Part shown: positions 5,396-27,998 of the stretch, piece by piece
Layout: each line of letters opens with the position of its first letter
How positions within the stretch are numbered: position 1 is the stretch's first letter
From: Pseudomonadota bacterium
GTDB lineage: Bacteria > Pseudomonadota > Gammaproteobacteria > UBA9214
DNA length: 64,000 nt
Assembly (NCBI GenBank): GCA_039714975.1
Contig: JBDLIH010000005.1
Span: forward strand, 12,857-76,856
Direction: 5' to 3'
Translations under genes and position numbers: made by a program
The notes under the pieces: generated by a model
The model's database searches: none
What the model saw: the letters and a program-made list of their open reading frames with translations, nothing else
Told to the model about the DNA's origin: nothing

Positions 5396-5430
5396 AACAT
5401 CCAAGGATTTTCATAAATGCTGCAATTTTT

Positions 5431-10241: not shown

Positions 10242-10275
10242 ACTATAACAGCGGGATGTTACCGTTTTGTTACAA
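10242..10275 (-). promoter_or_regulatory. Candidate Pho box plus -10 hexamer upstream of pstS
   Basis: The minus strand reads TTGTAACAAAACGGTAAC (two half-sites 11 bp apart with an A-rich spacer, roughly 12-14/18 to CTGTCATAWAWCTGTMAY). A 10-nt spacer and TATAGT follow. This is the same geometry as E. coli Pho promoters. Confidence 0.5.
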
Positions 10276-11679: not shown

Positions 11680-11695
11680 GCTTGCGTTTCTCCGG

Positions 11696-13249
11696 CTAAT
11701 GGCTGGATGAGAAAAGTTTTCGGAATCGGTCCTGGTTGTCCTGGCGTGAGAAGCCGGCGTAGCGGCCGGAAAATTCCTCACGTGCCTGGCGCTGGCGCCG
11801 TTCCAGACCATCGATCAGCATACCCATGGCGAGCAGCGTGTCAGGAGGGACTGCGCCTTCGGCAACCATCTGGTGGCTGAATGTTTTCAGGGTGGTGACC
11901 TGTACCTCATAATCCTGAAAGTTACCCAGGTTGTCCTGCAATGTCTTGAGTGTGCGGATTAATTCCTTGATATTGCCGGCCGGGTACAGGCTCAGGAAGA
12001 ACTCCATGAGATAACGCAGTTTCTTGCAGGTCTTGCGCAGTTCATGGAGATCATCCGCGGGCGATTCAGGGGTGATGGCATCGCCTTCCCGGATGACGCG
12101 CCGGAAGATACGCCAGATACGCTCGCTGGCTACCTCAACGACGGGCCGGCCTGCATTTTTCAGCGTCGAGCGTTCGTTGACCGATTCCTCAAGAAAACTG
12201 CGCCAGTTCCTGATCAGACGGCTGTAGCGTGCCGAATTCAGTGCCTTGACCAGGCTTTTGTTTTCAGCTTTCTGGTGTTTGATGAGGAACGTACGCAGTG
12301 GCTCGATATCGGTCTGCACGGCGGCAGGGAGGCTGTTACGGTATTCGTCAAAGTTCAGTAAATAGACATCCAGGTCACGGCTGGGACTGGTTATTTGCCC
12401 GAGCCAGGCAAATTCGGCTTTATATCGGTCAACAATGCGTTTCGGGAACACTGCCTTGATCTGGGAAAGGGCGGAACGGGTACGGCGAATAGCGACCCGA
12501 AAATCATGCAGGAACTCGGTGTCCGTACCGGTGCGTGTGCCGGCCTCGTTTTGCAGCATGATATCAAGTAGCCGATGCAAGATGAGCTTGCTTGCCTCAT
12601 CTGCCCGCATGGCGGGATCCAGTTCCAGGTTCAGTTTGGACGAGTAGTTACCCGGTGTTTCACCGATAGTGGACAGGACCGCCAGCAAGAGATCATCCTC
12701 TGCCGGGCTCAAACCCTGCTGCTGCAGAATTTTTGCTACTGCCTTGCCGGGTTTCGGGAAACCCCTGACCGGAATGATGACTGCCCGATTATCAAGTTTT
12801 CCGGAACGGACTCCTTTCTGTCGAGGCAGGGTGTTTTCCTCGACCACCAGCCAGGCCACCGTTTTTTCGTCCTTGTTCAGGATGCGCAGGGTGTTGGTCC
12901 TGGTGCGAATTCTGAATTTCGGGACCAGTTCGCGCATTTCAAGCACCGGTTCAAGCTGCTTGCGGAGCGGTCCTTGTGGCAGGTCCCAGGCAAATCGGGG
13001 CGCTTTATTCAGCTTCAGGCGGGGACAGCGTTGTTCACCTTTCAGGGTTCGCCATACCAGTGTGTGGCTGTTGCCGTCACGGGTGTCTTCAAGTAGTGAA
13101 TCATCCAGATACAGACGCCAGTCAAAACTGTCATAGTACGTCCGGTAGATCGTCCGTGACGGTTCTGTGAGTAATCGTGTGTTTTCCTGAAGAGTTGACT
13201 GCAAGTCTTCGAAGCACAGGTTCTCGGGAATAATATAATCTATACGCAT
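11696..13249 (-). CDS. CYTH-like (degenerate) / CHAD domain protein
   Basis: CHAD helices EFLHDFRVAIRRTRSAL and DDLHELRKTCKKLRYLMEFF. The N-terminal ~200 aa is CYTH-like (YYDSFDWRL) but lacks ExExK. Start moved to ATG 13249 (MRIDYII...); the longer ORF would overlap the divergent gene. Confidence 0.8.
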   Translation of the reverse strand: MRIDYIIPENLCFEDLQSTLQENTRLLTEPSRTIYRTYYDSFDWRLYLDDSLLEDTRDGNSHTLVWRTLKGEQRCPRLKLNKAPRFAWDLPQGPLRKQLEPVLEMRELVPKFRIRTRTNTLRILNKDEKTVAWLVVEENTLPRQKGVRSGKLDNRAVIIPVRGFPKPGKAVAKILQQQGLSPAEDDLLLAVLSTIGETPGNYSSKLNLELDPAMRADEASKLILHRLLDIMLQNEAGTRTGTDTEFLHDFRVAIRRTRSALSQIKAVFPKRIVDRYKAEFAWLGQITSPSRDLDVYLLNFDEYRNSLPAAVQTDIEPLRTFLIKHQKAENKSLVKALNSARYSRLIRNWRSFLEESVNERSTLKNAGRPVVEVASERIWRIFRRVIREGDAITPESPADDLHELRKTCKKLRYLMEFFLSLYPAGNIKELIRTLKTLQDNLGNFQDYEVQVTTLKTFSHQMVAEGAVPPDTLLAMGMLIDGLERRQRQAREEFSGRYAGFSRQDNQDRFRKLFSSSH

Positions 13250-13337
13250 TTGCTGTCGTGCCCGGATTGCTTTCCGGTAATGAATATATCTGCCCCACGC
13301 TGATAATCCGGTAACCGTATTTTTTATACAGCCCATT

Positions 13338-13372
13338 CTGTCACTAAAACTGCCATTCATGCAATGATAAGT
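13338..13372 (+). promoter_or_regulatory. Pho-box-like direct repeat plus -10-like hexamer upstream of the CNNM gene
   Basis: CTGTCAC-TAAAA-CTGCCAT, then 10 nt, then ATAAGT. The half-site period is 12 bp rather than the canonical 11 bp. Confidence 0.3.
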
Positions 13373-13412
13373 GTATGTTTTGGCAGATCTGGCTGGATTC
13401 TGGTATGAATAT

Positions 13413-14672
13413 ATGATGGAAATTGTTGCTCTGCTGGTGTTGCTGGTTTTTTCCGGAATTTTCTCCGGCTCGGAGACGGCCCTGGTTGCGCTGTCCATGG
13501 CGCGGGTGGGAGCCCTTGTCACGGAAGAGAGAGCGGGTGCGAAGGCGCTCTACCAGCTCAAGAAAGACCCTTCGCGGATGCTGACGACCATCCTGATCGG
13601 TAACAATCTGGTCAATATTGCAGCCTCGGCACTGGCGACGGTTGTTGCAACGCGGGAGTTTGGCAGTGCCGGGCCGGGTATTGCCGTTGGTGTGCTGACC
13701 CTGTTTATTCTGGTGTTTGGTGAAATTACACCCAAGAGCCTGGCGACGCGTTTTTCCGAGCGCATTTCACTGTTTATCGCCTTTCCGTTACTGACATTCA
13801 TGCGCCTGATTTATCCCCTGGTGTGGTTCTTTGGCAATTTCACCAACTGGGTACACCGCCTGACAGGCGGCAAGGGGGATCCAACGGTGACCGAACTGGA
13901 ACTGATCGGGATGCTGGGATACGGTGTTGAGGAAGGCGCCATCGAGCATAATGAGCAGAAAATTATCGAGCGGGTATTTGCCTTCAATGACCTGAAGGTT
14001 CGGGATGTCATGACGCCCAAGGGTAAAATGTTTACCCTGGACAGTGCGCTTTCAGTAGCCGCAGCCATCCCGGTAGTATCGCAGGAGCGCTATTCGCGGA
14101 TTCCCCTGTTTGAAGGACAAAACGATAACATAACGAAGGTGCTATACCTGCGGGACCTGCTCAGGGCTTCTGCCAGCGGGCAGATGGAAGAATCACTGGG
14201 CAGTATTGCCCATGAGCCGCTGTTCGTGTCGCAGTATCAGGCGATCGATGACCTGTTTGCCACCTTGAGACAGCGTAACCGGCTTTTCTCTATCGTGGTG
14301 GATGAATACGGAGATGTACGGGGAATTGTGACGCTCGAAGACCTGCTGGAGGAACTGGTCGGTGAAATCTACGATGAAAGCGATGTTGCGCCACTTGATG
14401 TCGACAGTCTTTCCATGAATGAAATCAGTGTGCCGGGATCTGCTGAACTGCGTGTGGTAGAGGAATTCTTCAATCTGGAACTGCCGGGAAAACCAACCGA
14501 TACGGTCAGTCTGTGGATCTTGAGCCACACGGAATATATTCCCCGCGAGAGTGAAACATTCACAATCGACAATCTGGAAGTCAGGATTGTCAGGGCATCG
14601 GACCGCAGTATCGACCAGGTCAATATACGTTACCCTGCCGGTGTTCCGGACAGTGTTGAAGATGATCAATAA
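13413..14672 (+). CDS. CNNM/CorC-HlyC family transporter (DUF21 + CBS pair + CorC_HlyC)
   Basis: FSGIFSGSETALVAL (DUF21), a CBS pair, and a C-terminal transporter-associated domain. The track start is GTG 13371 and the first ATG pair is at 13413/13416. Confidence 0.85.
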   Translation: MMEIVALLVLLVFSGIFSGSETALVALSMARVGALVTEERAGAKALYQLKKDPSRMLTTILIGNNLVNIAASALATVVATREFGSAGPGIAVGVLTLFILVFGEITPKSLATRFSERISLFIAFPLLTFMRLIYPLVWFFGNFTNWVHRLTGGKGDPTVTELELIGMLGYGVEEGAIEHNEQKIIERVFAFNDLKVRDVMTPKGKMFTLDSALSVAAAIPVVSQERYSRIPLFEGQNDNITKVLYLRDLLRASASGQMEESLGSIAHEPLFVSQYQAIDDLFATLRQRNRLFSIVVDEYGDVRGIVTLEDLLEELVGEIYDESDVAPLDVDSLSMNEISVPGSAELRVVEEFFNLELPGKPTDTVSLWILSHTEYIPRESETFTIDNLEVRIVRASDRSIDQVNIRYPAGVPDSVEDDQ

Positions 14673-14763: not shown

Positions 14764-15966
14764 TTAAGTCAGAGACAGCAAGGCTGCAGCCAGCAGTTCA
14801 GCATCATAATAAGGTGCACTTTGCTTGCTGATCAGACGGGTATCGATGATCCGGATACCCAGTTCCTGCATGAGCGGGGCTGACAGTGATGACGGGTAGT
14901 TACCCCGCTTGCTGTCCATAAGCACAAAATTAAGCAGTTTCCCGTTGGGACACTTGTCGGTGTTATCGGCACGCAGGTAGTCGAGCAGGGTCAGTACGGA
15001 ACTGTCCAGGGTCATACCGATTTGTTCCGGGTCCTGTCCAAGGTTGGGAATGTAGACTTTCGGGCAATCCGTCGCGGCGATGGATGAACCGACGCCTGCC
15101 GGCAACAGGTTGGCCACCAGGCTTGAATAGAAACTACCGGGCGGGTAGCAGATGAGTTCCGACTGCTGGATCAGTCGGCAGTACTTTTTGCGCATTTCTG
15201 CCTTCGCAGCGATGGGTTTGTCGCGATGACTGGACAGGAACAGGCGGCTGACGGGTGACTTCAATGGTGCAGCTTCCTTGCCGGTCAGTCGATGCTGACC
15301 GGTCACGCAACTGCCGTCCTCCAGTTCTGCCGCCAGGTGCAGGTCGTTATTGACCACGGCGAGTACCGTGCCCAGTACATTGACCAGTTTGGAGAACAGG
15401 AAAATGATCGGGTCCAGGTGTTTGTGGTTATTCAGGTAACCGCCGGCAAGAATCAGATTGCCTGTACTGGCGCCACGCAGATCGAAATCATCCGGCATGG
15501 CCTCACGGAAGTAGCCCAGCTGGTTGCGGATCAGCCGGCGCATGGGGTTGGAGATGGCTGCCACCAGTGGTTCCTTGCCCCTGATCATCAGGTCGAGCCT
15601 GGCCAGCAGTTCGTCGGCGGGTTCATCAACGGGAAAACGATAGGTAAATAGCTGGTAAACCTCCGGGTGCCCGGTAATATTTTCATCGGCGAGAGCGACC
15701 AGTCGGCTGCGGAGGTCGCCAATCGACGGCATGGAGAAGGCCTGGCGCAGCTTTGCCGAGCTGCCGCCGGAATCAAAGGGCGTAACCAGGTGGATGGAGT
15801 TGTGCGTGTAGCGTTTTATTACACGGCTCGTGGCGGTGAGGGCAGTCCCGCCGCTGAAAAACAAAATGCGAGGCCCCAGTTCGGGTGCCTTCAGGTAGCG
15901 ACTGAGTCGCACCCGGTCGGGTATTTTTACGGTGCGGGTGATTCTGACAGATTTGTGTTCAGACAC
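14764..15966 (-). CDS. CofD/YvcK-like protein (GAK-system CofD-related type)
   Basis: N-terminal ILFFSGGTALTATSR...LVTPFDSGGSSAKLR is typical of the CofD/UPF0052 fold. Divergent from the ATP-grasp/kinase operon. Confidence 0.75.
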   Translation of the reverse strand: MSEHKSVRITRTVKIPDRVRLSRYLKAPELGPRILFFSGGTALTATSRVIKRYTHNSIHLVTPFDSGGSSAKLRQAFSMPSIGDLRSRLVALADENITGHPEVYQLFTYRFPVDEPADELLARLDLMIRGKEPLVAAISNPMRRLIRNQLGYFREAMPDDFDLRGASTGNLILAGGYLNNHKHLDPIIFLFSKLVNVLGTVLAVVNNDLHLAAELEDGSCVTGQHRLTGKEAAPLKSPVSRLFLSSHRDKPIAAKAEMRKKYCRLIQQSELICYPPGSFYSSLVANLLPAGVGSSIAATDCPKVYIPNLGQDPEQIGMTLDSSVLTLLDYLRADNTDKCPNGKLLNFVLMDSKRGNYPSSLSAPLMQELGIRIIDTRLISKQSAPYYDAELLAAALLSLT

Positions 15967-16115
15967 TATTCAGGTCCGTGAGTGGTTCAGGGGGCATGTC
16001 CACATCTCAGTCGCAGGTCTCCGGGCTCATCTGGTACATAAGGTTTGTATTATTAACCTCGACGTTTGACTGCTATGATTAAATACTACAATACAATAAC
16101 CGCTATGGCAGGCCT

Positions 16116-16589
16116 ATGGAATCGATAGTTGCTCCGATACGCAATGCTGCCCGCGCACTGATCAGGCAGGACAATAATATTCTGCTGTTGCGCAAGGAGG
16201 GGTATGAAGACGGTGAGCGCTTTGCCCTTCCCGGGGGAGGGCAGGATTTGGGGGAGACACTGGAACAGGCGTTGCACCGTGAATGTTTGGAGGAAATCGG
16301 TACCCGGGTGGAAATCCATGATCTGGTCCATGTGGCGGACTGTTTCAAGCCGCGGGATACATTGCCCCGCAGCACGCGTCACCTGACCGAATTTCTGTTC
16401 GCGTGTACCGTTCCTGGTGACTATGTACCCGGGAACGGTCACCACCCGGACAAGCACCAGGTAGAGGTGGTCTGGGTCAGGCTGGAGGAGCTGGCGGACA
16501 TGCCGCTTTACCCGAGGGCGCTGGCCCCGTATCTGGTGACATCCAGGGAGAGTGACGGCACCGTTTATCTGGGCACTATCGACTGGTAA
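16116..16589 (+). CDS. Nudix hydrolase (canonical Nudix box)
   Basis: GGGQDLGETLEQALHRECLEEIG matches Gx5Ex7REUxEExGU. Confidence 0.85.
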   Translation: MESIVAPIRNAARALIRQDNNILLLRKEGYEDGERFALPGGGQDLGETLEQALHRECLEEIGTRVEIHDLVHVADCFKPRDTLPRSTRHLTEFLFACTVPGDYVPGNGHHPDKHQVEVVWVRLEELADMPLYPRALAPYLVTSRESDGTVYLGTIDW

Positions 16590-18229
16590 TGAAACTTTCG
16601 AAGCAAATACGCAACAATCTCCGCTTCCTGGTAGCCGAGGTTGGATCCCAGGTCACCAATCTGCAGGCCTATCTTGACACCCCCTCGGCAACCGTCGCAC
16701 GGCGTATTCTTGATCGCAGCGGCTATGCCTATAATCTTATGCTGCGGATACACGACAGTTGCCACAGTCAGGTCATCAAGGCCGGTGAATCCGGTACAGA
16801 GACTGCGTCACTGCGGACCATTGAGTCCATTGCGACTGACCTGGAACATATCACCGGCTTGTGTCGCGAATGCATCCAGCAACTGGACCAGATGCAAAAG
16901 AGGTGTTGTCCCGGTGCCGGCACCTGCAGGTACATGCTTGGCAGTATCATTCAGGGACTGGACCGGATTGAAGATGCGATCCGTCAAAACGATACCCGGC
17001 TGGCTCTCAAGATCGGCCGCATCAAACCGCGCCTGGACAAGGCCAGTCAGAAACTGCTGAGAAAATACACGGCAGGGTTGAAGCACAAGAAACATACGGA
17101 AGACCTGGTGGCAGGGTTGTTCGTGGTTCATGGCATTGAGCAGATGGGCGATGCCATGCTCAATATCAGCGAAGCCATTATATCTGCCAATCTGGGGCAA
17201 CCCATCAATATTGAACGCTACAACTCCCTGCGTGCTTCAATGGAAGAGCTGGATACGGCAAGTAACCATTCAGAACTGGTGGCGGAGACGATTGCAGAAA
17301 CCCGTTCGGGCAGCGGTATTTCCGGTATCAGCTCAACGGGGCAGGAAGATGCCGGCTATGTGGCTATCTACAAGGATGGCAAGAAGCGCAAGTTGCGGGA
17401 GGAGCGCAGGGGCCTTGCAAGCTGGCAGGAAATATACCCGGGGCTGGCGCCGAGGATTCTTTCCTACAAAAAGCGCGGACAATCAGCCTCCTTATTGATT
17501 GAACATCTGGCCGGAATGACATTCGAGCAGATATTGCTGCATGAGCCAGGCCGCTTGCTCAGACAGACCCGGAAGCAACTCAATCGCACTCTGGGAAAGA
17601 TCTGGCGCGAGACGCGTACCGGCAAGCCGGTTTCCGCCGCTTACATGACGCAACTCTCAAAACGCCTGGAGGAGGTGTATACCATTCACCCGGAATTTCG
17701 GACGGATGACTGCCGTATCTGTGGCAAGGCCGTGCCGTCGTTTGGTGCCTTGCTGAAACAGGCACATAAACGCGAAGCCGGGATCAGGGCGCCGTTTTCC
17801 GTGTATATCCATGGCGATTTCAATGTGGACAATATCATCTACGATCCGCTGGAGAAGAAAATCAATTTCATTGACCTGCACCGTTCGCGCTACATGGACT
17901 ACGTACAGGATGTCTCTGTTTTCATGGTATCCAATTACCGCTTGCAGATTTTTGATGCACCACTACGCCGGCGTATCATGTTGCTGACACGGGATTTCTA
18001 CCGTTTTGCAGCGGCCTTTGCCAGGAAATCCGGCGACACAACATTTGAGCTGCGCCTGGCCCTGGGGCTGGCGCGCTCGTTTGCCACATCCACACGGTTC
18101 ATCCTGGACAAGTCACTGGCACGCGCCATGTTCCTGCGTGCGCAGTACCTGCTCGAGCAGGTACTGGCTGCAGACCTGAAAGACCCGGCAGCGTTCCGTG
18201 TGCCGGTTAAGGAGATCTTCATTGGCTGA
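16589..18229 (+). CDS. PhoU-like domain fused to an APH/choline-kinase-fold kinase
   Basis: The N-terminal ~200 aa has two PhoU-like helical repeats (...IESIATDLEHITGLCREC..., ...HGIEQMGDAMLNISEAI). The C-terminus has the kinase catalytic loop YIHGDFNVDNIIYD and NFIDL. There is a TAATG junction with the upstream gene. Confidence 0.65.
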   Translation: MKLSKQIRNNLRFLVAEVGSQVTNLQAYLDTPSATVARRILDRSGYAYNLMLRIHDSCHSQVIKAGESGTETASLRTIESIATDLEHITGLCRECIQQLDQMQKRCCPGAGTCRYMLGSIIQGLDRIEDAIRQNDTRLALKIGRIKPRLDKASQKLLRKYTAGLKHKKHTEDLVAGLFVVHGIEQMGDAMLNISEAIISANLGQPINIERYNSLRASMEELDTASNHSELVAETIAETRSGSGISGISSTGQEDAGYVAIYKDGKKRKLREERRGLASWQEIYPGLAPRILSYKKRGQSASLLIEHLAGMTFEQILLHEPGRLLRQTRKQLNRTLGKIWRETRTGKPVSAAYMTQLSKRLEEVYTIHPEFRTDDCRICGKAVPSFGALLKQAHKREAGIRAPFSVYIHGDFNVDNIIYDPLEKKINFIDLHRSRYMDYVQDVSVFMVSNYRLQIFDAPLRRRIMLLTRDFYRFAAAFARKSGDTTFELRLALGLARSFATSTRFILDKSLARAMFLRAQYLLEQVLAADLKDPAAFRVPVKEIFIG

Positions 18230-19112
18230 ATACAAAATTGGTGTTATCGGTATACCGGGCAAGTGGTCCACGGAAACCCTGGCCGATGCCGTTGAGGAAA
18301 GGACCGGTTACCGGCGGGTAATCGATATGGGTGAGGTGAGCCTTGACCTGGAACGACAGCGCCTGCTGTTCCAGGATCAGGACCTGTGTCAGCTGGATGC
18401 GCTGATCGTCAAGAAGATCAGTGCCAGCTACAACCCCAATACCCTGGATCGCCTGGAACTGCTACGTGTTGCCGAGCAGGCCGGGGTTCGGGTCTTCAGC
18501 CGGGCGGAGAACATCCTGCGCCTGATCGACCGCCTGAGTTGCACCGTTACCCTGCGCAATGCCGGCATCCCCATGCCGGCGACCCGTGTCACCGAGGATA
18601 TCGGGGCGGCAATTACGGCCGTAGAGGATTTTGGCAGCGCCGTCTTCAAACCCCTGTATTCCACCAAGGCGCGCGGCATGTGCGTGATCGATGCTGAACT
18701 TGACCACAGTGAGATTGAACGTGAAATTCAAGCCTTTCAGGCGGAGAATCCCATGATGTATATCCAGCAGAAAATCGAGTTGCCGGGCCGCGACCTGGGC
18801 ATGGTGTTCCTGGCGGGTGATTATCTTGGCAGCTATGCCCGGGTGTCCAGGGACGATGCCTGGAACACGACCATACACAGTGGCGGCAAGTATGCCGCAC
18901 ATACACCACCGGATGCTGTAATAGAGCTTGCACAGCGCTCCCAGGCGCTGTTTGATATGGACTTCACCACGGTCGATGTCGCCGAAACAAAGGAGGGTCC
19001 GATTGTGTTCGAAGTATCGGCATTCGGTGGCTTTCGTGGTGCGCTGGAGGGTATTGGCATCGATGCTGCCGGTTTGTATGTTGAACATGTACTGCGCCAA
19101 CTGACAGTATGA
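18222..19112 (+). CDS. RimK-like ATP-grasp enzyme (GAK-system type)
   Basis: VFKPLYSTKARGMCVI, YIQQKIELPGRDLGMVF and FTTVDVAETKEGPIVFEVSAFGGFRG. Start moved to TTG 18222, 7 nt after AAGGAG (18209-18214). The track start is GTG 18198. Confidence 0.8.
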   Translation: MAEYKIGVIGIPGKWSTETLADAVEERTGYRRVIDMGEVSLDLERQRLLFQDQDLCQLDALIVKKISASYNPNTLDRLELLRVAEQAGVRVFSRAENILRLIDRLSCTVTLRNAGIPMPATRVTEDIGAAITAVEDFGSAVFKPLYSTKARGMCVIDAELDHSEIEREIQAFQAENPMMYIQQKIELPGRDLGMVFLAGDYLGSYARVSRDDAWNTTIHSGGKYAAHTPPDAVIELAQRSQALFDMDFTTVDVAETKEGPIVFEVSAFGGFRGALEGIGIDAAGLYVEHVLRQLTV

Positions 19113-19131
19113 ACAAGAGGGGGGAACGACG

Positions 19132-20220
19132 ATGGGCTACACAGAAGAATCTGCCGTGAGTGCTTTACAGGCTGAAGCACCTTTGTGTGCTGATGAACTG
19201 TATCTTGCACTCAGTGGCTGTACGCTGAGACTGCGCTCCAACTCCACGGAACTGGTGGCCGTGCTGGCCGATTATTTCTCGCATGTCGCAAGCGAATCAG
19301 TGACGCCTGACGTCGACATCATTGCCATTGAACGCGATGCGCCGGAACTGGATATCAACTTTATTGACTGGGAACGCGAGCCGGGCAAGACCGGACGCAA
19401 GGATTCCTATGCGGACCTGCCGGGTGGACGTCTGGTACGCAAGGTGCGCACCGGCATGGTGTTTCTGCAAAGTGTGCATCACCGTATCGCGGCCGGGCCG
19501 TGCCTGAAATACGACAATCAGGTGATCAACTTTATCAACTCCCAGTACATGAACTGGTTGCAGAACCGGGGCTGGTTGATCTGCCATGCTGCGGGGCTGG
19601 TCTTCCGGGGCAAGGGTCTTGGAATTGCCGGGTTCTCCGGTGGCGGCAAGTCGACCCTGATGCTGCATTTACTGGACAATGATGAGGTATCGTACCTGAC
19701 CAACGATCGTTTGTTCATTCATGCCGGTTCCGGCCAGGTGCAGGCACGTGGCATACCGAAATTGCCACGCATCAATCCCGGTACCATCGTTCACAATCAA
19801 AAACTGCACAGCCTCATTCCTGCACAACAGCGCGAGGCTCTGCTGCAGTTGCCGGCAGCAGAGCTCTGGGAACTCGAGGAAAAATACGACGTGCATATCG
19901 ACAGGGTCTACGGACCCGGCAGGATCACACCGGAGGCCCCCCTGTCAGCATTCCTGATTCTTGACTGGCAACGTGACAGTGACAGCGAACTGCAGGTAGA
20001 GCGGATCGATCTGGCAACACAACGTGATCTGCTGGGTGCCTTGATGAAATCTCCCGGTCCGTTCTACCAGTATCCGGATGGCAGCTTCCAGGAGGATACG
20101 ACCGCCTTTGATGCTTCGGCCTACCTGGATGCACTGGAAAATGTGCCTGTCTATGTTGCCAGGGGGCGGGTTGATTTTTCCACCCTGTCAGACCGCTGTC
20201 TGCAGGAGGTACTGGCATGA
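19132..20220 (+). CDS. HprK-related P-loop kinase
   Basis: GLGIAGFSGGGKSTLMLHLL...LTNDRLFI parallels the HprK/P motif G-SG-GKS...DD. Confidence 0.7.
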   Translation: MGYTEESAVSALQAEAPLCADELYLALSGCTLRLRSNSTELVAVLADYFSHVASESVTPDVDIIAIERDAPELDINFIDWEREPGKTGRKDSYADLPGGRLVRKVRTGMVFLQSVHHRIAAGPCLKYDNQVINFINSQYMNWLQNRGWLICHAAGLVFRGKGLGIAGFSGGGKSTLMLHLLDNDEVSYLTNDRLFIHAGSGQVQARGIPKLPRINPGTIVHNQKLHSLIPAQQREALLQLPAAELWELEEKYDVHIDRVYGPGRITPEAPLSAFLILDWQRDSDSELQVERIDLATQRDLLGALMKSPGPFYQYPDGSFQEDTTAFDASAYLDALENVPVYVARGRVDFSTLSDRCLQEVLA

Positions 20221-21176
20221 ACCGCGAACTGCTGCTGCTGCGCCATGGCAAGTCCGACTGGAGTACCGGTCTCGATGATTTTCATCGCCCGCTGACGGAC
20301 CGAGGCAAGCGGGGTGCCCAGCGTATCGGGGTATGGCTTGCGCAGCAGAAAATGGTACCTGATTTTATTGTCACCTCACCGGCGGAACGTGCACTGGTCA
20401 CTGCCCAAAAGGCCTGCAAGGCCATGGGGAACGGTGACGAGGGGATACAGCGGGACAGACGCCTGTATGCAGCCGGTATAGATGAATTAGTGGCTGTGCT
20501 TGGTGATTGTCCGCCGGACGCAGGTCGGGTCATGCTGGTAGGACATAACCCGGGACTGGAGGAGCTGCTGGTATGGCTGGCGAGTGATACGGTAACGGTG
20601 CCGGATGATGGCAAACTCCTGCCGACAGCGACGCTGGCCAGATTATACATGCCGGCTGACTGGCAAGCCCTGATAGCCGGGTGTGCACAACTGGATGCCA
20701 TTACACGGCCGGCAATGCTGCCGAAGAAATTTCCTTATCCTGCACCCGACGGCAAGGAACAGCGTGACCGGCCCGCGTACTACTATACCCAGTCATCCGT
20801 GATCCCGTACCGTGTGCGTGACGGGAAAATGGAAATACTGGTTATAGCGTCCAGCAAGAAGCATCACCTCGTAGTCCCGAAAGGCATCAAGGATCCCGGG
20901 CTGTCTCCCCGGGCATCAGCCGCGAAGGAGGCACTGGAGGAGGCCGGCATCGAGGGAGACATTGCGGAAACCGCGCTCGGTAGTTATACCTGTGAAAAGT
21001 GGGGCGCTACCTGTACCGTCGCGGTATATCCCATGAAAGTAACCCGTGTCATACCGGAGGAAGAGTGGGAGGAACGCCACCGGGGGCGCGAGTGGGTTGC
21101 CCCGGACGTGGCAGCAAGCCGGCTGAAACAGGAGGAACTGCGGCCCCTGGTCAGGAAGCTGGAAGCGCTGCTCTGA
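20217..21176 (+). CDS. SixA-type histidine phosphatase fused to a DIPP-like Nudix domain
   Basis: N-terminus: LLLLRHGKSDW, SPAERALVTA, LVGHNPGLEEL. C-terminus: VIPYRVRDGKMEILVI...PKGIKDPGLSPRASAAKEALEEAGI. There is an ATGA overlap with the upstream gene. Confidence 0.8.
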   Translation: MNRELLLLRHGKSDWSTGLDDFHRPLTDRGKRGAQRIGVWLAQQKMVPDFIVTSPAERALVTAQKACKAMGNGDEGIQRDRRLYAAGIDELVAVLGDCPPDAGRVMLVGHNPGLEELLVWLASDTVTVPDDGKLLPTATLARLYMPADWQALIAGCAQLDAITRPAMLPKKFPYPAPDGKEQRDRPAYYYTQSSVIPYRVRDGKMEILVIASSKKHHLVVPKGIKDPGLSPRASAAKEALEEAGIEGDIAETALGSYTCEKWGATCTVAVYPMKVTRVIPEEEWEERHRGREWVAPDVAASRLKQEELRPLVRKLEALL

Positions 21177-21179
21177 ACA

Positions 21180-21881
21180 ATGGCCAGATTGATTGCGGCG
21201 CTGATTCGACACGGCGACTATCATCAGTCACCGGACACCCCCAGTGCCCATCAACCCTGGCCGCTCAACAGCGAAGGGGAAGCCCAGGCGCAGGAAGGTG
21301 CGCAACTGCTGCATGACATGATTATCCGGAGTGGCTGGACCCTGGTTCCGTCAATTGATTCATCCCGCTTGCTGCGTGCATGGCAGACGGCGGCGATATT
21401 TGCAGACAGGCTTGCCGAGCGGGCTTCATCCCCGCTGCATATCGAGAGTTATGACGAGTTGGCTGAAAGGGGCGTCGGCTGCCTGGCCAACCTGAGCATC
21501 GCACAGATCGAGGACGTCCTGCGCCAGGACCCGCGTGTTTCCGATCCACCTGCCGACTGGAAGGCGGACAGCCATTACCGCTTGCCGTTACAGGGTGCCG
21601 AATCCCTTTTGCAGGCCGGTGAACGGGTAGCCAATCACCTGTCGCAATCCATGGCGGCATTACCGCCCGACGATAATGACCGGGTAAAGGTTTTTGTCGG
21701 TCACGGCGCTGCCTTCCGCCATGCTGCCTACCATCTCGGGGTGCTGGAGTTCAGGCAACTCAGGCAACTCAGTATGTTTCACTGCCAGCCGGTCATGCTT
21801 GAGTATATACCCGACGGGAGCTGGCACCATGTCGAGGGAGACTGGAAAGTGCGTACCCTGCAGAGCAGCTTCACCGACTAA
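21180..21881 (+). CDS. Histidine phosphatase (PGAM-like) family protein
   Basis: ALIRHGDY, SSRLLRAWQTA and FVGHGAAFRH. Confidence 0.8.
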   Translation: MARLIAALIRHGDYHQSPDTPSAHQPWPLNSEGEAQAQEGAQLLHDMIIRSGWTLVPSIDSSRLLRAWQTAAIFADRLAERASSPLHIESYDELAERGVGCLANLSIAQIEDVLRQDPRVSDPPADWKADSHYRLPLQGAESLLQAGERVANHLSQSMAALPPDDNDRVKVFVGHGAAFRHAAYHLGVLEFRQLRQLSMFHCQPVMLEYIPDGSWHHVEGDWKVRTLQSSFTD

Positions 21882-21895
21882 TCGGGAATCCAGCC

Positions 21896-23230
21896 ATGCA
21901 ATTGAAGAATTCATGCAAATACCTCCCGCGTTACAAGGGGACATCCTGGATCAAGGCCAGCCTGCCGGGGCAGGGGCAGGTCTGGATGCTGGGTAAACAG
22001 CTTTCCGTTAAAAAAGACAAATACCACAGTGCTGCCTATGCGCAGGAAATGCACAAGGCAATCGGGCAGGAACCGTGGAAATGGCCGAAACGGACCCTGT
22101 ATTTTATTTCCGATATGCATGCCGATGCCGATGCCTTCATGGCCTCCCTGGTTGCCTCGGGCGGTGTAAAAAAAACCGGGCCGCGGGACAAGGATTTCAA
22201 GCTCACCAGGGCAGGGCGGAAGTCGCGTTTTCTTATCGGCGGCGACAGTTTTGACAAGGGGCCGAGTACGCTGCGGTTGCTGGATGTTATCCGTCTGCTG
22301 ATCGATCGTGGCGGGGATGTGCAACTACTGGCCGGTAATCATGATATCCGCATGATGCTTGGAATAAGGGCGGCCGGGATGGAGCCTGACCCGAGAATCG
22401 ATCATTTTTTTATCCGCATGGGGCCCAAGATGGTTCCGTTCCTGACCGAGATCCGTGACCGCTATCTGCAAGAGAAAGACGCTTTGCACGGTGTGCCGGA
22501 TAGTCGTGAATGCAGGCGCCGGCTCTACCCCCCGAAAAGCTGGTTCCAGGAATTTCCGCAACTGGCCGTCTGGGCAATGCCGGAAACGACCATTGAGCGT
22601 GAGGTGAACAAATTACGCAAGAAGGTGAGAATCTTTGAAGCGGATTGCGAGAAGGCAGGACTGTCCCTGCGCATGGTGTACGCGGCTGCAAGGAAATGGC
22701 AGGAGTTATTCATGCATTCAAAGGGCGAATACGCGTGGTTTTATAAACGTATGAAACTCGGTTACCGTGAAGGTTCTTTTATTTTTGTCCATGCCGGTAT
22801 CGATGACCGAATGGCCAGATTGATCAGCGAAAAGGGTATGAAGCATATCAACCGGAAATTCCGCAAGCTGATGTACAGTGATCCGTTTGATTTCTACTAT
22901 GGCCCCATGGCCAATATTATTCGCACCAAGTATCGTCCGGTAGACATGCCCCTGACCCGGTATGGTGTCAAACTGCTCAGAAACAAGAGTGGTGTGCATG
23001 CCATTGTTCACGGCCATCGCAACCTGCTGCATGGACAACGGGTGATGTTGAGAAAAGGGATGGTCAATTTTGAGTGTGATACCACGCTGGATCGCAACTC
23101 AAGAAAAAAAGAGGGGCTGGAGGGGCCGGGAGCGGCGGTCACCATCTTCAGGCCGGAAGGGCTGGTGATGGGCGTCAGTACCGACTACCCTTATATCAAG
23201 GTATTTGAACCGGCATCTGCAAATCACTAA
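21896..23230 (+). CDS. Metallophosphoesterase
   Basis: FISDMHADADAF, LIGGDSFDKGP and LLAGNHD. Confidence 0.75.
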   Translation: MQLKNSCKYLPRYKGTSWIKASLPGQGQVWMLGKQLSVKKDKYHSAAYAQEMHKAIGQEPWKWPKRTLYFISDMHADADAFMASLVASGGVKKTGPRDKDFKLTRAGRKSRFLIGGDSFDKGPSTLRLLDVIRLLIDRGGDVQLLAGNHDIRMMLGIRAAGMEPDPRIDHFFIRMGPKMVPFLTEIRDRYLQEKDALHGVPDSRECRRRLYPPKSWFQEFPQLAVWAMPETTIEREVNKLRKKVRIFEADCEKAGLSLRMVYAAARKWQELFMHSKGEYAWFYKRMKLGYREGSFIFVHAGIDDRMARLISEKGMKHINRKFRKLMYSDPFDFYYGPMANIIRTKYRPVDMPLTRYGVKLLRNKSGVHAIVHGHRNLLHGQRVMLRKGMVNFECDTTLDRNSRKKEGLEGPGAAVTIFRPEGLVMGVSTDYPYIKVFEPASANH

Positions 23231-23286
23231 CACCATTCCCGGACATAACCCGGTTACCGGGGAATACCGACAACGGATTTGTAAAA

Positions 23287-23556
23287 ATGAGAAACAGAAA
23301 AAAAAGTTTCCGTCACCAGTCACTGCAGGATGAGAAATCCATTCAGGATATTCTGAAAGCCATTACCGGCGGCATCGCCAGGGGGAAAATCACCTTCAGC
23401 GATGAAGACGAAAAAATCGTCATGCGGCCCGAGGGTCTGCTGGAACTCAAGGTTACCGCTAACCAGGAAGATAATCGCAACCGCTTCAATATCCGGATAA
23501 GCTGGCAGGTGGAGGATGACCATGAGAAGAAAAAGAAATCGTTGTCCGTGAAGTGA
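23287..23556 (+). CDS. Small charged protein, amphi-Trp-domain-like
   Basis: 89 aa with an amphipathic N-terminal helix (SIQDILKAITGGIARGKI) and a C-terminal ...RISWQVEDDHEKKKK. Assignment rests on context and my recollection of the amphi-Trp definition only. Confidence 0.5.
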   Translation: MRNRKKSFRHQSLQDEKSIQDILKAITGGIARGKITFSDEDEKIVMRPEGLLELKVTANQEDNRNRFNIRISWQVEDDHEKKKKSLSVK

Positions 23557-23727
23557 GGTCGACGACACAAATGCAGCATGGGTGCCTGCGACCGGGGAGG
23601 GTGCTTCATGGTTAAACTGCAGACAAGATCTGGAGGATATCTGACTTTCAGTACGCAGAGACGTTAACTTAAGTGACATTGTTGAAAGATCTTTTACATT
23701 GCAGTCATAACTTGTTATCTTTCAGTC

Positions 23728-24390
23728 ATGCGCGCGATTATTACCAGGCACTACAAGACCATAATCAATGCGTCGGAACAGATTCTGGGTTGGGGGGATT
23801 CTCCGCGAGACAGCGGCTGGAGGGCCGATGTCGAGTTTGTCAGTGTCCGGCTGCAGGAAAACGGGATCAACTTCGATGCCGTCTATTCAAGCGATCTGGA
23901 ACGCTCCCGGCAGACTGCAATGTTTCATGCCCGGCGCCTGGGTATCCATCTCATACACGACACGCCGGCACTGAATGAAGTCAACTACGGGAAGCTGTAC
24001 AAAAAGAAAAAGAAGTGGGTGGCCGAACACTACCCGCAACACAAGAAGGATCCGGATTTAGTCTATCCGGAAGGCGAGAGTTTTCGCCAGATGCAACAGC
24101 GCAGCGTCAACTATCTTTCATCCCTGGCACAGATACATCCACTACAGACTGTTCTTATCGTCGCTCATGCCGGAGTGATAAGGGGGCTTGTCAGCCATTT
24201 CCTCAGTCTGGACTATGCGGACAATCTCAACCATAAAATATCACACCGCTATATCGGTGATTTCCTGTTTGATGGTAAGCACTGTGTGCGTTATGACGAA
24301 CTGGGTAAGCCATCCGGATTTGTGCGTGAAAGTGTCATCAAGATACCCTTTTCCTGTTCTGTCACAGATAGTCTGGTGAATACTGCATAG
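23728..24390 (+). CDS. Histidine phosphatase (PGAM-like) family protein
   Basis: IITRHYKT, SSDLERSRQTA and VAHAGVIRG. Confidence 0.75.
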   Translation: MRAIITRHYKTIINASEQILGWGDSPRDSGWRADVEFVSVRLQENGINFDAVYSSDLERSRQTAMFHARRLGIHLIHDTPALNEVNYGKLYKKKKKWVAEHYPQHKKDPDLVYPEGESFRQMQQRSVNYLSSLAQIHPLQTVLIVAHAGVIRGLVSHFLSLDYADNLNHKISHRYIGDFLFDGKHCVRYDELGKPSGFVRESVIKIPFSCSVTDSLVNTA

Positions 24391-24543
24391 TTCCGACCCG
24401 TGCTGAAAATTTCCACCCGATCAGCCGGGAACACCTGGGTTTTCTGAGCTATCCTGCTGACACGGCCGGCCAGGCGTATTGGCAAGGCACATGGATCATG
24501 TCAGCGCCTTGTAGCTGCCCGCCATCTAAAAACAGGCAGATAG

Positions 24544-26376
24544 TTATACCGCATGTTCAAGTACTTCCTCAGGCAGGACAGTCTTGGCCATGCGCTTGGA
24601 GAAATAATAGATCCGCTTCAGTTTCTCGATTAAATCCATTTCGATTGTGTAGGCCTCCAGCCGGTTTGGTTCGTCTGCAACCAGTCGTTTGGCCTGGTGC
24701 ATGGTGGCTGAATCAATCAGACGGGCGATGTCATCTTTCATGGCAATCACTTCCTGCGCGGCCTGCTGGTCAGCTTTCATGACAGCATCCATGGACAGCT
24801 CCGCTGTTGTTGAAACGATGCCATGCAGCTTGTTGAGGACCTCCTGGGTCATATCACTGATGGATACCTCTTTATCGATACGCTGATTACCGAGGTAGAC
24901 CATCTCCTTTTCGATGACATCACCGATATTTTCCAGGTCATTGATGGCCTCCATCAGGTCGACGAGTTCACGGGTCTGCTTTTCCGAGAGCTGATTGCGG
25001 CTGATGCGGCCGAGATATTCGATGATGTGCTTGTAGAGAATGTCGACCTCGTCATCGATTTTGGCAATCTCCTTAAGGGTGGTACGATTACCCGACATAA
25101 TGGCCGGCATGATCTTTTCCAGCATTTTGTTGACGCGCTCTCCCATATGGCCTGCCTCCAGTCGTACCCGGTCCAGCGCCAGCGAGGGGGTTTCAAGGAG
25201 TTCATCGTCAAGATACTTTGGTCTTGCAATCATTTTTTCTGCCATCGGCCTGTCTGGCACCAGCCACTCCACCAGTCGTGCAAACTGGCCGGCAAGTCCG
25301 ATAAAGATGAAAGTATTGGCGACATTGAATACGGTATGGGCATTGGCGATCTGGCGCGGCGCCTCGGCACCCAGCCGGTCGACCCCCGCCAGTTCCGGGT
25401 GGGCGGGTGACAGCCAGGTGACGAATTGTGCCAGGTAGGGGATAAAACCGACCCACAGCAGTACGCCGAAGACATTGAACATGACGTGCACTACCGCAGC
25501 ACGAACGGCTTCCCGGGGTTTGCCGATGGCCGCCAGCATGGCGGTCACGCAGGTACCGATATTGGCACCCAAGGCAAGCGCAATACCGGCCTGCAGGGTA
25601 ATGAAGCCCTGGGTCGCCATTACGATCACGATACCCGTGGTTGCCGAGGATGACTGGACCAGTCCGGTGAAGGCTGCAGCGACCAGAATCCCGACAAACG
25701 GATTTTCCATGCTGGTCATCAGATCCAGGAACGGCTGATAGCTGCGCAATGGCTTCATGGCCTCGCTCATGACGCTCATGCCGAAAAAGACCATACCAAG
25801 CCCCATCAGCATGCCGCCATAGTTTTTTATCTTTTCCTGTTTCGAGAAAAACAGCATGCCGAAACCCACTGCAATCATGAGCAGTGCCGCCTTGGTGACC
25901 TTGAAGGCGACGATCTGGGCGGTGATGGTGGTGCCGATATTGGCCCCCATGATGACACCGATAGACTGGGACATGGACATCAGGCCGGCCGTGATAAAGC
26001 CGACCACCAGTACAGTAGTCACCGACGAGGACTGGATGATAGCGGTTACGAAGGCACCGGTCGCGGCCCCCATGAAGCGGTTGGTCGTCAGTTTCGCGAG
26101 GATGACTTTCATGCGTTCGCCGGCAACCGCCTTGAGTGCGTCGGCCATTTGCTCCATACCGAACAGGAACAGTGCCAGCCCGCCCAGCAGCTTCATGCCC
26201 ATATTCCACCATTCCATTTCACCCGGAGCGCCGCTGGCGGCCAGTGCCAGTGCCGGTGCAGCCATTAGCCCGGCCATTGCCGCACAAATCATTAACAGTG
26301 AAACGGGAATACTCTCCAGCAGACTGATGGCTTTGAAACGATGTCGCATGTTGCTCTCCTCAAGGAGTGTTTTCAT
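24544..26376 (-). CDS. Na/Pi cotransporter family protein with C-terminal PhoU-like domain
   Basis: Duplicated QSSSVTTVLVVGF / QSSSATTGIVIVMA motifs. The C-terminal ~230 aa is helical and PhoU-like. Confidence 0.85.
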   Translation of the reverse strand: MKTLLEESNMRHRFKAISLLESIPVSLLMICAAMAGLMAAPALALAASGAPGEMEWWNMGMKLLGGLALFLFGMEQMADALKAVAGERMKVILAKLTTNRFMGAATGAFVTAIIQSSSVTTVLVVGFITAGLMSMSQSIGVIMGANIGTTITAQIVAFKVTKAALLMIAVGFGMLFFSKQEKIKNYGGMLMGLGMVFFGMSVMSEAMKPLRSYQPFLDLMTSMENPFVGILVAAAFTGLVQSSSATTGIVIVMATQGFITLQAGIALALGANIGTCVTAMLAAIGKPREAVRAAVVHVMFNVFGVLLWVGFIPYLAQFVTWLSPAHPELAGVDRLGAEAPRQIANAHTVFNVANTFIFIGLAGQFARLVEWLVPDRPMAEKMIARPKYLDDELLETPSLALDRVRLEAGHMGERVNKMLEKIMPAIMSGNRTTLKEIAKIDDEVDILYKHIIEYLGRISRNQLSEKQTRELVDLMEAINDLENIGDVIEKEMVYLGNQRIDKEVSISDMTQEVLNKLHGIVSTTAELSMDAVMKADQQAAQEVIAMKDDIARLIDSATMHQAKRLVADEPNRLEAYTIEMDLIEKLKRIYYFSKRMAKTVLPEEVLEHAV

Positions 26377-27113: not shown

Positions 27114-27288
27114 TGTATCCACAAGCCTGCAGGCAATATGGAATAACCCCTTCAATCAACAGGTGTATGTATCTATACTTCGTATTTCAGATAGATGTGT
27201 TCCTGGTGCTGACTGCGAGTATTTACTGGCAAACACTGACCGGAGCATTATGGGGAAATCAGCAACACTAACAAGAGAGGTGATGGTA

Positions 27289-27969: not shown

Positions 27970-27998
27970 TACTCAATAAATTACAAGGGGGAGGAGCC

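Follow-up and report, generated by a model that had tools for sequence, protein, structure and literature searches.

Why would a GAK system (ATP-Grasp, Amphi-Trp, Kinase) lie among genes for phosphate uptake and polyphosphate (polyP) metabolism, and what might it do there? The question is raised by a stretch of 64,000 nucleotides of contig JBDLIH010000005.1, from an uncultured bacterium of the UBA9214 lineage of Gammaproteobacteria, which we call the window. We find that its positions 14764 to 24390 almost certainly hold an intact GAK system, of a subtype conserved in Gamma- and Alphaproteobacteria. The comparison with other loci brings out a PhoU-fused kinase that is universal, a serine motif specific to the system, two architectures with non-homologous hydrolase modules, and recurring links with pst, polyP and Mg2+ genes. 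Our literature search returned no functional study of the system, and the single mention of it was an entry in a proteomics table. One amphi-Trp-domain protein, which may not be a GAK copy, ranks in the top 20 by abundance in the proteome of Dissulfuribacter thermophilus (PMC13490349). These results turn a system known by name only into a testable hypothesis on how bacteria sense or buffer phosphate. The cluster is not unique to the window and is worth experiments, and there are culturable carriers for genetics: Marinobacterium, Halomonas, Marinobacter xestospongiae, Thalassospira lucentensis and Pseudodesulfovibrio mercurii.

Identification of the GAK system

The cluster consists of a minus-strand gene diverging from nine plus-strand genes:

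14764 to 15966, minus strand: GAK CofD/YvcK-like protein, 400 aa, divergent from the operon
15967 to 16115, no strand: divergent intergenic and promoter region, with TTGACT (16066-16071) and TACAAT (16087-16092) kept in close relatives
16116 to 16589, plus strand: Nudix hydrolase, 157 aa, with an intact Nudix box GGGQDLGETLEQALHRECLEEIGT (Pfam NUDIX, 69 bits)
16589 to 18229, plus strand: two-repeat PhoU domain (residues ~5-200) fused to an APH/EcKL-fold kinase (~240-460) with HGDFNVDN and FIDL motifs
18222 to 19112, plus strand: GAK ATP-grasp ligase of the RimK/LysX/MptN type, 296 aa from TTG (alternative ORF start at 18198)
19132 to 20220, plus strand: HprK-related kinase B (HprK-like kinase below), 362 aa, with P-loop GFSGGGKST, N191-D192-R193 and a PKxPRINPGT motif
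20217 to 21176, plus strand: SixA-type His-phosphatase (residues 1-125, RHG) fused to a DIPP/Ap4A-hydrolase-like Nudix domain (~195-315)
21180 to 21881, plus strand: PGAM/CobC-type histidine phosphatase, 233 aa (Pfam His_Phos_1, 65.6 bits)
21896 to 23230, plus strand: calcineurin-like metallophosphoesterase, 444 aa, with DMH, GDSFDKG and GNHD motifs (Pfam Metallophos, 28.7 bits)
23287 to 23556, plus strand: amphi-Trp protein, 89 aa, with N-terminal F8-R-H10-Q-S12-L-Q14-D15, and W73
23728 to 24390, plus strand: second PGAM/CobC-type histidine phosphatase, 220 aa (Pfam His_Phos_1, 100.7 bits)

We searched these proteins with the NCBIfam profiles TIGR04354-TIGR04358, using the curated cut-offs, and with Pfam for the other domains. 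Four markers scored above their cut-offs: TIGR04357 for the CofD-like protein (546.5 bits, cut-off 340, matching profile positions 1-368 of 368), TIGR04356 for the ATP-grasp ligase (454.9 bits, cut-off 300, full-length match), TIGR04355 for the HprK-like kinase (358.7 bits, cut-off 200), and TIGR04354 for the amphi-Trp protein (65.6 bits, cut-off 31; Pfam PF20068 32.5 bits). The remaining marker, the XXXCH-domain protein (TIGR04358), had no match among the ten window proteins. In the operon proteins, Pfam identified NUDIX, PhoU with APH, RimK, His_Phos_1 with NUDIX, His_Phos_1, Metallophos, Amphi-Trp and His_Phos_1. The original prediction, made from the sequence before any search, had called the cluster a GAK system with two kinases, one ATP-grasp ligase, one CofD-like protein and six phosphohydrolase domains. 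The membership, the domain calls of all ten proteins and the count of parts are borne out.

A conserved proteobacterial subtype

The HprK-like kinase has 1865 relatives at E<=1e-5 among clusters at 90% identity, and about 305 clusters at 50% identity and E<=1e-30. When one genome per GTDB species was scanned by pattern, at least 597 contigs turned out to carry a relative. The closest genome among the matches listed is an Ectothiorhodospiraceae metagenome-assembled genome, with 85% identity in this kinase. We took the best 80 HprK-like kinase loci (51-85% identity) and searched them with all window proteins by tblastn, counting the 50 distinct loci with at least 4.5 kb on each side of the kinase gene.

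The ATP-grasp gene is present in all 50 loci, the PhoU-APH and SixA-Nudix fusions in 49 each, the amphi-Trp gene in 47, the first His-phosphatase in 44, the metallophosphoesterase in 43, the first Nudix gene in 42, and the second His-phosphatase in 7. The CofD-like gene is divergent in 30 loci and absent within 10 kb in the other 20. The commonest architectures are an eight-gene block lacking a nearby CofD-like gene (15 loci) and the same block with a divergent one (14 loci). The order Nudix, PhoU-kinase, ATP-grasp, HprK-like kinase, SixA-Nudix, His-phosphatase, metallophosphoesterase, amphi-Trp is syntenic in dozens of gamma- and alphaproteobacterial species, whose genera include Marinobacterium, Halomonas, Marinobacter, Thalassospira, Terasakiella, Methyloprofundus, Thiodiazotropha and Sedimenticola, along with tubeworm symbionts. 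The recurrence of this order in so many species shows that the cluster is more than chance, and the HprK-like gene is indeed co-conserved with the PhoU-kinase and the phosphatases elsewhere.

The prediction had described the cluster as expanded with phosphohydrolases. This does not hold, since the eight-gene block recurs across many hosts: five of the six domains are a fixed signature of a widespread gamma/alphaproteobacterial subtype and not a feature of the window. The sixth, the second His-phosphatase, is a lineage-specific add-on found in 7 of the 50 loci, all close relatives, and the exact window layout including it occurs in about 7 close relatives.

The departures from the block follow some regularities. 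The HprK-like kinase, SixA-Nudix and amphi-Trp genes remain together in the split operons of loci L047 and L053. The first His-phosphatase and the metallophosphoesterase relocate or disappear as a pair; where they are missing from the block (L040, L044, L067 and, on the other strand, L061), the SixA-Nudix gene is directly followed by the amphi-Trp gene. Some relatives have extra phosphohydrolases with the block, namely a 187-aa Nudix protein (9 loci), a protein of the endonuclease/exonuclease/phosphatase (EEP) family (5 loci) and a CYTH triphosphate-tunnel protein (4 loci); examples are L002 14701-15285, and L047 5111-6265 and 15538-16170, both on the minus strand.

Two GAK architectures

Distant loci were reached with a profile made from the most distant HprK-like representatives, and six of them, from Desulfobacterota and Phycisphaerae, were read with precomputed Pfam annotation. 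All six have the same order: an XXXCH-domain protein (not in every locus), a protein of ~385 aa, an amphi-Trp protein, a PhoU-APH fusion of 544-551 aa, the ATP-grasp ligase and the HprK-like kinase, followed in some by the CofD-like protein and a second amphi-Trp protein. The CofD-like gene is downstream of the HprK-like kinase gene in five of the six, and L086 has none within 10 kb. The XXXCH protein of L082 scores 101.9 bits with TIGR04358. Neither the XXXCH nor the ~385-aa protein occurs in any of the 50 proteobacterial loci (for XXXCH, by tblastn with Desulfonema and Pseudodesulfovibrio queries). The XXXCH protein is thus an accessory of the canonical subtype and not universal. Conversely, none of the proteobacterial accessory hydrolases is found in the six distant operons.

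Hence, the universal core of GAK systems comprises the amphi-Trp protein, the PhoU-APH kinase, a RimK/LysX-type ATP-grasp ligase, a P-loop kinase of the HprK/PEPCK fold and, usually, a YvcK/CofD-like protein. In the gamma/alphaproteobacterial subtype, the Nudix, SixA-Nudix, His-phosphatase and metallophosphoesterase proteins replace the canonical XXXCH and ~385-aa proteins, and this hydrolase module is what separates the two subtypes. The window therefore resembles the canonical system of NCBIfam in clustering four of the five marker families and in the PhoU-APH partner that it shares with the Desulfobacterota and Phycisphaerae loci. It differs in lacking the XXXCH and ~385-aa proteins, in having the four hydrolase genes just named and the extra His-phosphatase, in its divergent upstream CofD-like gene (downstream in canonical loci), and in its single amphi-Trp copy, whereas canonical loci have two or three.

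The ~385-aa protein is conserved at 52-58% identity and lies immediately upstream of the amphi-Trp gene in canonical operons:

L082, 5032 to 6195: ~385-aa protein
L083, 6017 to 7177: ~385-aa protein
L084, 5841 to 7148: ~385-aa protein
L085, 5984 to 7096: ~385-aa protein
L086, 5918 to 7120: ~385-aa protein

Its invariant motifs are HWHPEF, PTxHN, PHPEQFWPILL, EVWNPQS and MGDDxHMGE. Searches of Pfam, NCBIfam and the PDB, profile search included, returned no relative. We guess from the invariant His and Asp motifs that it may be a new family of metal-dependent hydrolases or phosphoesterases. The position 5' of the amphi-Trp gene would then be held by a metallophosphoesterase in the proteobacterial subtype and by this putative phosphoesterase in the canonical type. 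One further arrangement was seen in P. mercurii (L083 12345-14304), where the GAK operon runs on into a gene for an amphi-Trp-domain protein whose Lys/Ala tail is like that of histone H1, an ORF of 61 aa, a gene for a ParA-like ATPase and a further amphi-Trp-domain gene, in a layout that resembles a cargo-positioning module of ParA and adaptor.

The two kinases

The PhoU-kinase fusion had been taken for an addition to the system in this cluster. It is instead a core GAK part, since it stands beside the ATP-grasp and HprK-like genes in all six distant loci and in 49 of the 50 proteobacterial ones. All loci examined for it have the two-repeat PhoU module joined to the kinase, and the window protein is 34.6% identical over 544 aa to its Desulfonema orthologue. 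The Pfam scores are 37.3 bits for PhoU, which exceeds the Pfam cut-off, 29.9 for APH and 27.8 for EcKL. The PhoU family profile TIGR02135 matches residues 5-198 over 197 of its 212 positions, with 33.1 bits against a cut-off of 130.25; at this score the region is a PhoU-domain module and not a PhoU orthologue.

The HprK-like kinase had no match in sequence searches of the PDB and Pfam, and none to Hpr_kinase_C or TIGR00679 even at E<=5; its distant homologues gave weak or sub-threshold matches to these two. Its AlphaFold2 model has a pLDDT of 93.8 (alignment of 68 sequences). In Foldseek the full length of the model aligned with ATP-dependent PEP carboxykinases (TM ~0.5), and the HprK/P catalytic domain (1kkl, 1kkm, 1jb1, 3tqf) was matched with a target TM of 0.47-0.61 and a probability of 1.00. 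The Walker A motif GFSGGGKST and the invariant D192, together with the Foldseek match, assign it to the HprK/P fold. It is related to HprK/P but is not a member of that family. The P-loop, N191-D192-R193 and many Lys and Arg residues are invariant in the 68 sequences, and we read these Lys and Arg as pointing to an anionic substrate. Several apparent fusions were left unused because they may be artefacts of gene calling or assembly: P0190 (HprK-like kinase with an N-terminal part of CofD), P0212 (fragments of ATP-grasp and HprK-like kinase) and the metagenomic P0258 (604 aa), in which an N-terminal part of a phosphogluco/phosphomannomutase precedes the C-terminal half of HprK-related kinase B. 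If genuine, the latter could point to sugar-phosphate chemistry.

The ATP-grasp ligase and the CofD-like protein

After TIGR04356, the best NCBIfam matches of the ligase are MptN (1e-43), the RimK family (4e-29) and LysX (2e-25), and its best PDB matches are LysX/ArgX (5k2m, 3vpd) and RimK (4iwx, 5zct). It remains under the cut-offs of these families, with 101.9 bits for TIGR00768 (143.4) and 89.5 for LysX (275.6); Pfam RimK is present with 41.4 bits. Judging by these scores, it is a member of the RimK/LysX superfamily and a separate equivalog. More generally, the cluster's proteins do not belong to HprK/P, PhoU, RimK or LysX when the curated thresholds of these families are applied. A reading of the ligase as a kinase like PPIP5K or ITPK1 was rejected, as it has no sequence similarity to either at E<=1.

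The CofD-like protein matches Pfam CofD (PF01933) with 129.4 bits, and its best PDB sequence matches are the YvcK-type UPF0052 structures 2o2z and 2hzb. On the basis of these matches, it is closer to YvcK-type proteins than to CofD.

The amphi-Trp protein

The small protein ends in KKKKSLSVK and not, as first given, in KKKK. Across 31 orthologues F8, Q14 and W73 show no variation, and at least 90% keep H10, S12 and L13. Of the amphi-Trp copies in the six distant loci, only those beside the PhoU-APH gene carry the motif F-x-x-x-S-[LIF]-Q-D, and the second paralogues lack it. This GAK-specific motif, with Ser12, is thus conserved from Desulfobacterota to Gammaproteobacteria. An AlphaFold2 model of low confidence (pLDDT 62, from a shallow alignment at 85-96% identity) has residues 1-15 unstructured, followed by one helix and five strands. 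Foldseek of this model against the PDB returned nothing below E=0.2, and a PDB profile search with the amphi-Trp alignment gave no credible match. His10 is ~95% conserved in the subtype bearing SixA. It was considered as a universal phosphohistidine site and rejected, as it is conserved in three of the six canonical loci, which leaves a hint only.

The phosphohydrolases

The N-terminal domain of the SixA-Nudix protein matches TIGR00249 (sixA, 2.3e-11) and, in the PDB, the SixA structures 4hbz and 2rfl. Its residues 195-299 have their best PDB matches in DIPP1/2/3 (1.4e-5 to 1e-4, with DIPP1/NUDT3 at 1.4e-5) and in Ap4A hydrolases. Read by eye, its Nudix box is G-x5-L-x7-K-E-A-L-E-E-A-G-I, with the first Glu and the Arg of the consensus substituted. 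The metallophosphoesterase has a weak, non-significant similarity to ApaH in the PDB. From reading of the catalytic motifs, the RHG and the second His are present in the SixA and PGAM-type domains, and those of the APH domain and of the metallophosphoesterase look intact.

The phosphate neighbourhood

The GAK cluster lies inside a 32-kb phosphate island; the rest of the window carries unrelated ccm, mod and molybdoenzyme genes. The phoR, phoB, pst, ppk1 and Pit genes that had been noted at its flanks were all confirmed with Pfam. To the left of the cluster are phoR, phoB, two pstB, pstA, pstC, a PhoU-LMWPc fusion, pstS, and genes for an HhH protein, a ParA-like ATPase, a CHAD protein and a CNNM protein. 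The right-flank genes are the same around the block in close relatives. Among the flanking genes are:

10362 to 10712, minus strand: HhH protein with a Lys-rich tail (Pfam HHH_5)
10927 to 11811, minus strand: ParA-like ATPase (Pfam AAA_31/CbiA/ParA)
11696 to 13522 (maximal ORF), minus strand: CHAD-domain protein (Pfam CHAD, 205 bits)
24544 to 26376, minus strand: Na/Pi cotransporter fused to PhoU
26479 to 26949, minus strand: Usp
27163 to 29285, plus strand: PhoU_div and Pit
29302 to 31593, minus strand: ppk1

A gene for inorganic phosphate (Pi) or polyP was found within 10 kb in 16 of the 50 proteobacterial loci, and also in Desulfonema. Genes for pst-phoU, ParA-CHAD, ppk1, Pit/PhoU_div, Na/Pi and Mg2+ transporters (CNNM, MgtE) turn up around the block in at least eight distinct arrangements. 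For instance, L017 and L053 have ParA-CHAD downstream, and L069 has it upstream and in inverted orientation. In L070, ppk1 and PhoU_div are on one side and CHAD-ParA on the other, and L047 has PhoU_div-Pit. In Desulfonema the GAK operon stands between pstCAB-phoU and an MgtE Mg2+ transporter gene. The ParA-like and CHAD genes recur beside the block, in other arrangements than in the window, in L017, L053, L061, L069 and L070; CHAD is a polyP-binding module (PMC6537752). We roughly estimate, by reasoning, that a few per cent of randomly placed 20-kb stretches would contain genes of these kinds. The phosphate connection of the cluster, resting on the PhoU domain and on these neighbourhoods, is credible.

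The Mg2+ transporter family also shows up in the window itself, with three CNNM/CorC-type genes at the island flanks (13371-14672, 31730-33349, 33367-34626, plus strand). An MgtE gene is directly 3' of the GAK operon in Desulfonema ishimotonii (L082 12764-14191), and CNNM genes are beside the block in L024, L027 and L053. These observations hint at a link between the GAK system, polyP and Mg2+.

A possible cycle of modification on the small protein

What could a system of these parts do? Our preferred reading, which we hold tentatively, is that a modification cycle gated by phosphate acts on the conserved N-terminal tail of the small protein, its covalent substrate or carrier, with Ser12 as first acceptor. 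The HprK-like kinase would phosphorylate Ser12, and the PhoU domain would gate the second kinase by phosphate status. The ATP-grasp ligase would add an amide-linked amino acid onto the mark, and the CofD-like protein a phosphodiester from a nucleotide-activated donor. The SixA-Nudix protein, the His-phosphatases and the metallophosphoesterase would erase the mark or clear intermediates, and the modified small protein would act on polyP, Pi or Mg2+ handling. As chemistry of the HprK/P type is reversible, with Pi taken up and pyrophosphate (PPi) released, the modification state would depend on Pi. This chemistry was reportedly found by Mijakovic and colleagues in 2002 to be intrinsically sensitive to Pi and PPi.

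Four reasons make us favour a protein substrate. Both subtypes have the small protein in their core, and the system-specific motif lies in a segment predicted to be unstructured in the low-confidence model. HprK/P, RimK, LysX/ArgX and SixA act on small proteins, and the HprK-like kinase, SixA-Nudix and amphi-Trp genes stay linked in split operons. HprK/P phosphorylates Ser46 of the 88-aa HPr, and HprK-like kinases act on lasso-peptide precursors. The SixA family dephosphorylates proteins, namely the HPr paralogue NPr (PMC6282199, PMC7948535) and Ndk (PMC12934123). The window resembles such a set in encoding a protein of ~89 aa with a P-loop kinase of the HprK/P fold and a phosphatase of the SixA family. 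It differs in that its small protein is not HPr (no match to Pfam PTS-HPr), in that the N-terminal domain of its kinase is PEPCK-like, with no Hpr_kinase_C/TIGR00679 match, and in the lack of Enzyme I or sugar transport genes in the cluster or the annotated flanks. The LysW/LysX and RimK/S6 pairs are comparable too, as a RimK-family ligase is here paired with a small charged protein and a kinase, and its best solved relatives are LysX/ArgX and RimK; unlike these, the cluster has no enzymes of the LysY/J/K type.

A number of observations weigh against a modified tail. The orthologue of L034 has Ala at position 12, and three loci with long flanks (L010, L033, L037) have no amphi-Trp gene nearby. 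The C-termini of the amphi-Trp proteins are variable and lack the terminal Glu, unlike LysW or S6. Canonical systems have several amphi-Trp-like modules, which could be scaffolds rather than substrates. The match of the HprK-like kinase to PEP carboxykinase, which is a small-molecule enzyme, extends further along the kinase than its match to HprK/P, and CofD, MptN and CofF have cofactors as their substrates. Families typical of small-molecule work also supply the accessory hydrolases (DIPP-like Nudix, PGAM type, metallophosphoesterase, and CYTH and EEP in some loci). Finally, the GAK operon promoter has no Pho box of the pstS type, which speaks against PhoB controlling its transcription. The repeat TGTAACA-N4-GGTAACA is present at pstS (10257-10274); at up to three mismatches it is not found at the GAK, Na/Pi, Pit and ppk1 promoters, and the number of matches is below chance. 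Strings resembling a Pho box were seen, unscored, in the spacer between the CofD-like and Nudix genes of a few other species.

Alternative explanations

Several of these points would be expected if the cluster encoded a small-molecule pathway, a possibility nearly as likely as the favoured one. The product of the two kinases, the CofD-like protein and the MptN/CofF-like ligase would be a metabolite containing a phosphodiester or phosphoanhydride, for which a phospho-hydroxyacid-glutamyl tail like those of F420 and tetrahydromethanopterin (H4MPT) is a candidate, as is a solute or signal with a high degree of phosphorylation. The hydrolases would dephosphorylate pathway intermediates and clear side products, and the amphi-Trp protein would serve as scaffold, chaperone or regulator. 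CofD forms the phosphodiester of FO and phospholactate from a GDP-activated donor, and MptN and CofF add Glu to such tails. This chemistry argues for the pathway, as do MptN being the best named NCBIfam neighbour of the ligase (1e-43), the APH/EcKL fold, typical of small-molecule kinases, and the alignment of the HprK-like kinase with PEP carboxykinase over its whole length. The closeness of the fused Nudix domain to DIPP and Ap4A hydrolases and the additional Nudix, CYTH and EEP phosphohydrolases of some lineages point the same way.

The likeness to F420 and H4MPT tail assembly is that of a CofD-family protein found together with an ATP-grasp enzyme of the MptN/CofF-like alpha-L-glutamate ligase type. 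It has limits, however. The GAK CofD-like protein is nearer to YvcK, and it is dispensable or distant in 20 of the 50 loci. The F420 partners cofC, cofE and cofG/H have no such domains among the cluster or flank proteins, and there is therefore no CofC-type nucleotidyltransferase to activate a donor. Moreover, a pathway leaves a dedicated small protein with a GAK-specific tail motif unexplained, and the solved relatives nearest to the ligase act on proteins.

A third explanation, which we regard as unlikely, is a polyP-granule module. The amphi-Trp protein would be an abundant amphipathic coat or adaptor that binds polyanions, possibly partnered by the ParA-like ATPase. Through action on granule proteins or on the ends of polyP, the enzymes would govern how granules form, are positioned or are mobilised. 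DIPP-type Nudix enzymes can cleave polyP. In the window the CHAD, ParA-like, ppk1 and Lys-rich HhH genes stand beside the operon, and ParA-CHAD is again near the block in rearranged loci. The ParA-like gene of P. mercurii between two amphi-Trp-domain proteins, one with an H1-like tail, recalls AlgP (PMC9239181), and an abundant amphi-Trp-domain protein is known from D. thermophilus (PMC13490349), although it may not be the GAK copy. Against this, 34 of the 50 loci have no Pi or polyP gene within 10 kb, and NCBIfam and Pfam detected no polyP-binding domain in any operon protein.

A broader view, to which we give as little weight as to the granule module, would make GAK a device by which bacteria signal their phosphate status, with a function analogous to that of the inositol-pyrophosphate/SPX circuit of eukaryotes. 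The PhoU-gated kinase and the Pi/PPi-reversible HprK-type kinase would write a multi-step phospho-mark, elaborated by the ATP-grasp and CofD-like enzymes, either on the amphi-Trp tail or as a soluble polyphosphorylated messenger made on the amphi-Trp protein. The DIPP-like Nudix, SixA, PGAM-type phosphatases and metallophosphoesterase would erase it, and the marked protein would control polyP granule formation and Pi/Mg2+ transport. The eukaryotic toolkit has PPIP5K, with an ATP-grasp kinase and a His-phosphatase domain, IP6K and the DIPP Nudix enzymes (PMC4063336). Both sets combine ATP-grasp, histidine phosphatase and DIPP-like Nudix proteins with a phosphate-sensing module, PhoU here and SPX in eukaryotes. 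They differ in that the GAK His-phosphatases are of branch 1 and not branch 2, that no inositol-phosphate genes were seen, and that similarity to PPIP5K or ITPK1 is lacking. The likeness is an analogy of parts only.

An anti-phage defence or conflict system that sits by chance in a phosphate island is very improbable: combinations of kinase, Nudix and ATP-grasp are known in some defence systems and the first Nudix protein weakly and generically matches PDC-S07, but the remaining nine proteins have no PADLOC match, the synteny is chromosomal and stable across genera with housekeeping neighbours, and the region has ordinary GC content and no hallmarks of mobile elements.

Gene junctions, promoters and other features of the island

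The ORF map of the window matches the ten predicted ORFs in all coordinates, and these coordinates produce the overlaps noted at 16589 (TAATG) and 20217 (ATGA). The 8-nt overlap at 18222-18229 also stands, as the TTG start at 18222 is 7 nt 3' of an AAGGAG Shine-Dalgarno sequence, and the start called in the orthologue of L001 is equivalent and gives 296 aa. The tight packing described for the nine-gene operon holds for the first eight genes, spaced by at most 56 nt. The ninth, the second His-phosphatase gene, is preceded by a 171-nt gap with a promoter-like TTTACA-17-TATCTT site (23693-23721) and followed by a terminator-like hairpin (24425-24438). In the divergent intergenic region, the string ...GCGTTTGACTGGTATGATT...TACAATA...ACCGCTACGGCAGGC is common to the window, L004 and L006-L011. 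By its likeness to the consensus, this conserved element resembles an ordinary TTGACT...TACAAT promoter. A scan of the window with Rfam found no RNA family, and base composition is even across the window, with an unremarkable GC content.

Some neighbours of the cluster deserve mention in their own right. The HhH protein, of 116 aa (Pfam HHH_5, 44 bits), lies between the ParA-like gene and pstS and has a Lys/Gly-rich tail ...KGKKDKKEKKKKNKGKGKDKDKKKGKGKKKGKK. Orthologues with a KGK-repeat tail are found in the left flank as one ORF cluster in L002, L010 and L012, and another in L006-L008 and L011. By analogy with AlgP on polyP granules (PMC9239181), it may bind polyP or DNA and work as a partner of the ParA-like ATPase. 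In place of phoU, the pst operon has a gene (8143-9228, minus strand) for a 361-aa fusion of a two-repeat PhoU with a low-molecular-weight phosphotyrosine-phosphatase (LMWPc)/ArsC-like domain (PhoU 81 bits, LMWPc 29.7 bits). The island consequently holds four PhoU-family modules with different effectors: PhoU-LMWPc, PhoU-APH, Na/Pi-PhoU and PhoU_div. Two pstB-like genes for ABC ATPases (4592-5404 and 5538-6341, minus strand) are in tandem, about 130 nt apart. At the right edge of the island is a 342-aa ORF with no Pfam match (34964-35992, minus strand), and at its left edge a calcineurin-like metallophosphoesterase of 497 aa (237-1730, minus strand).

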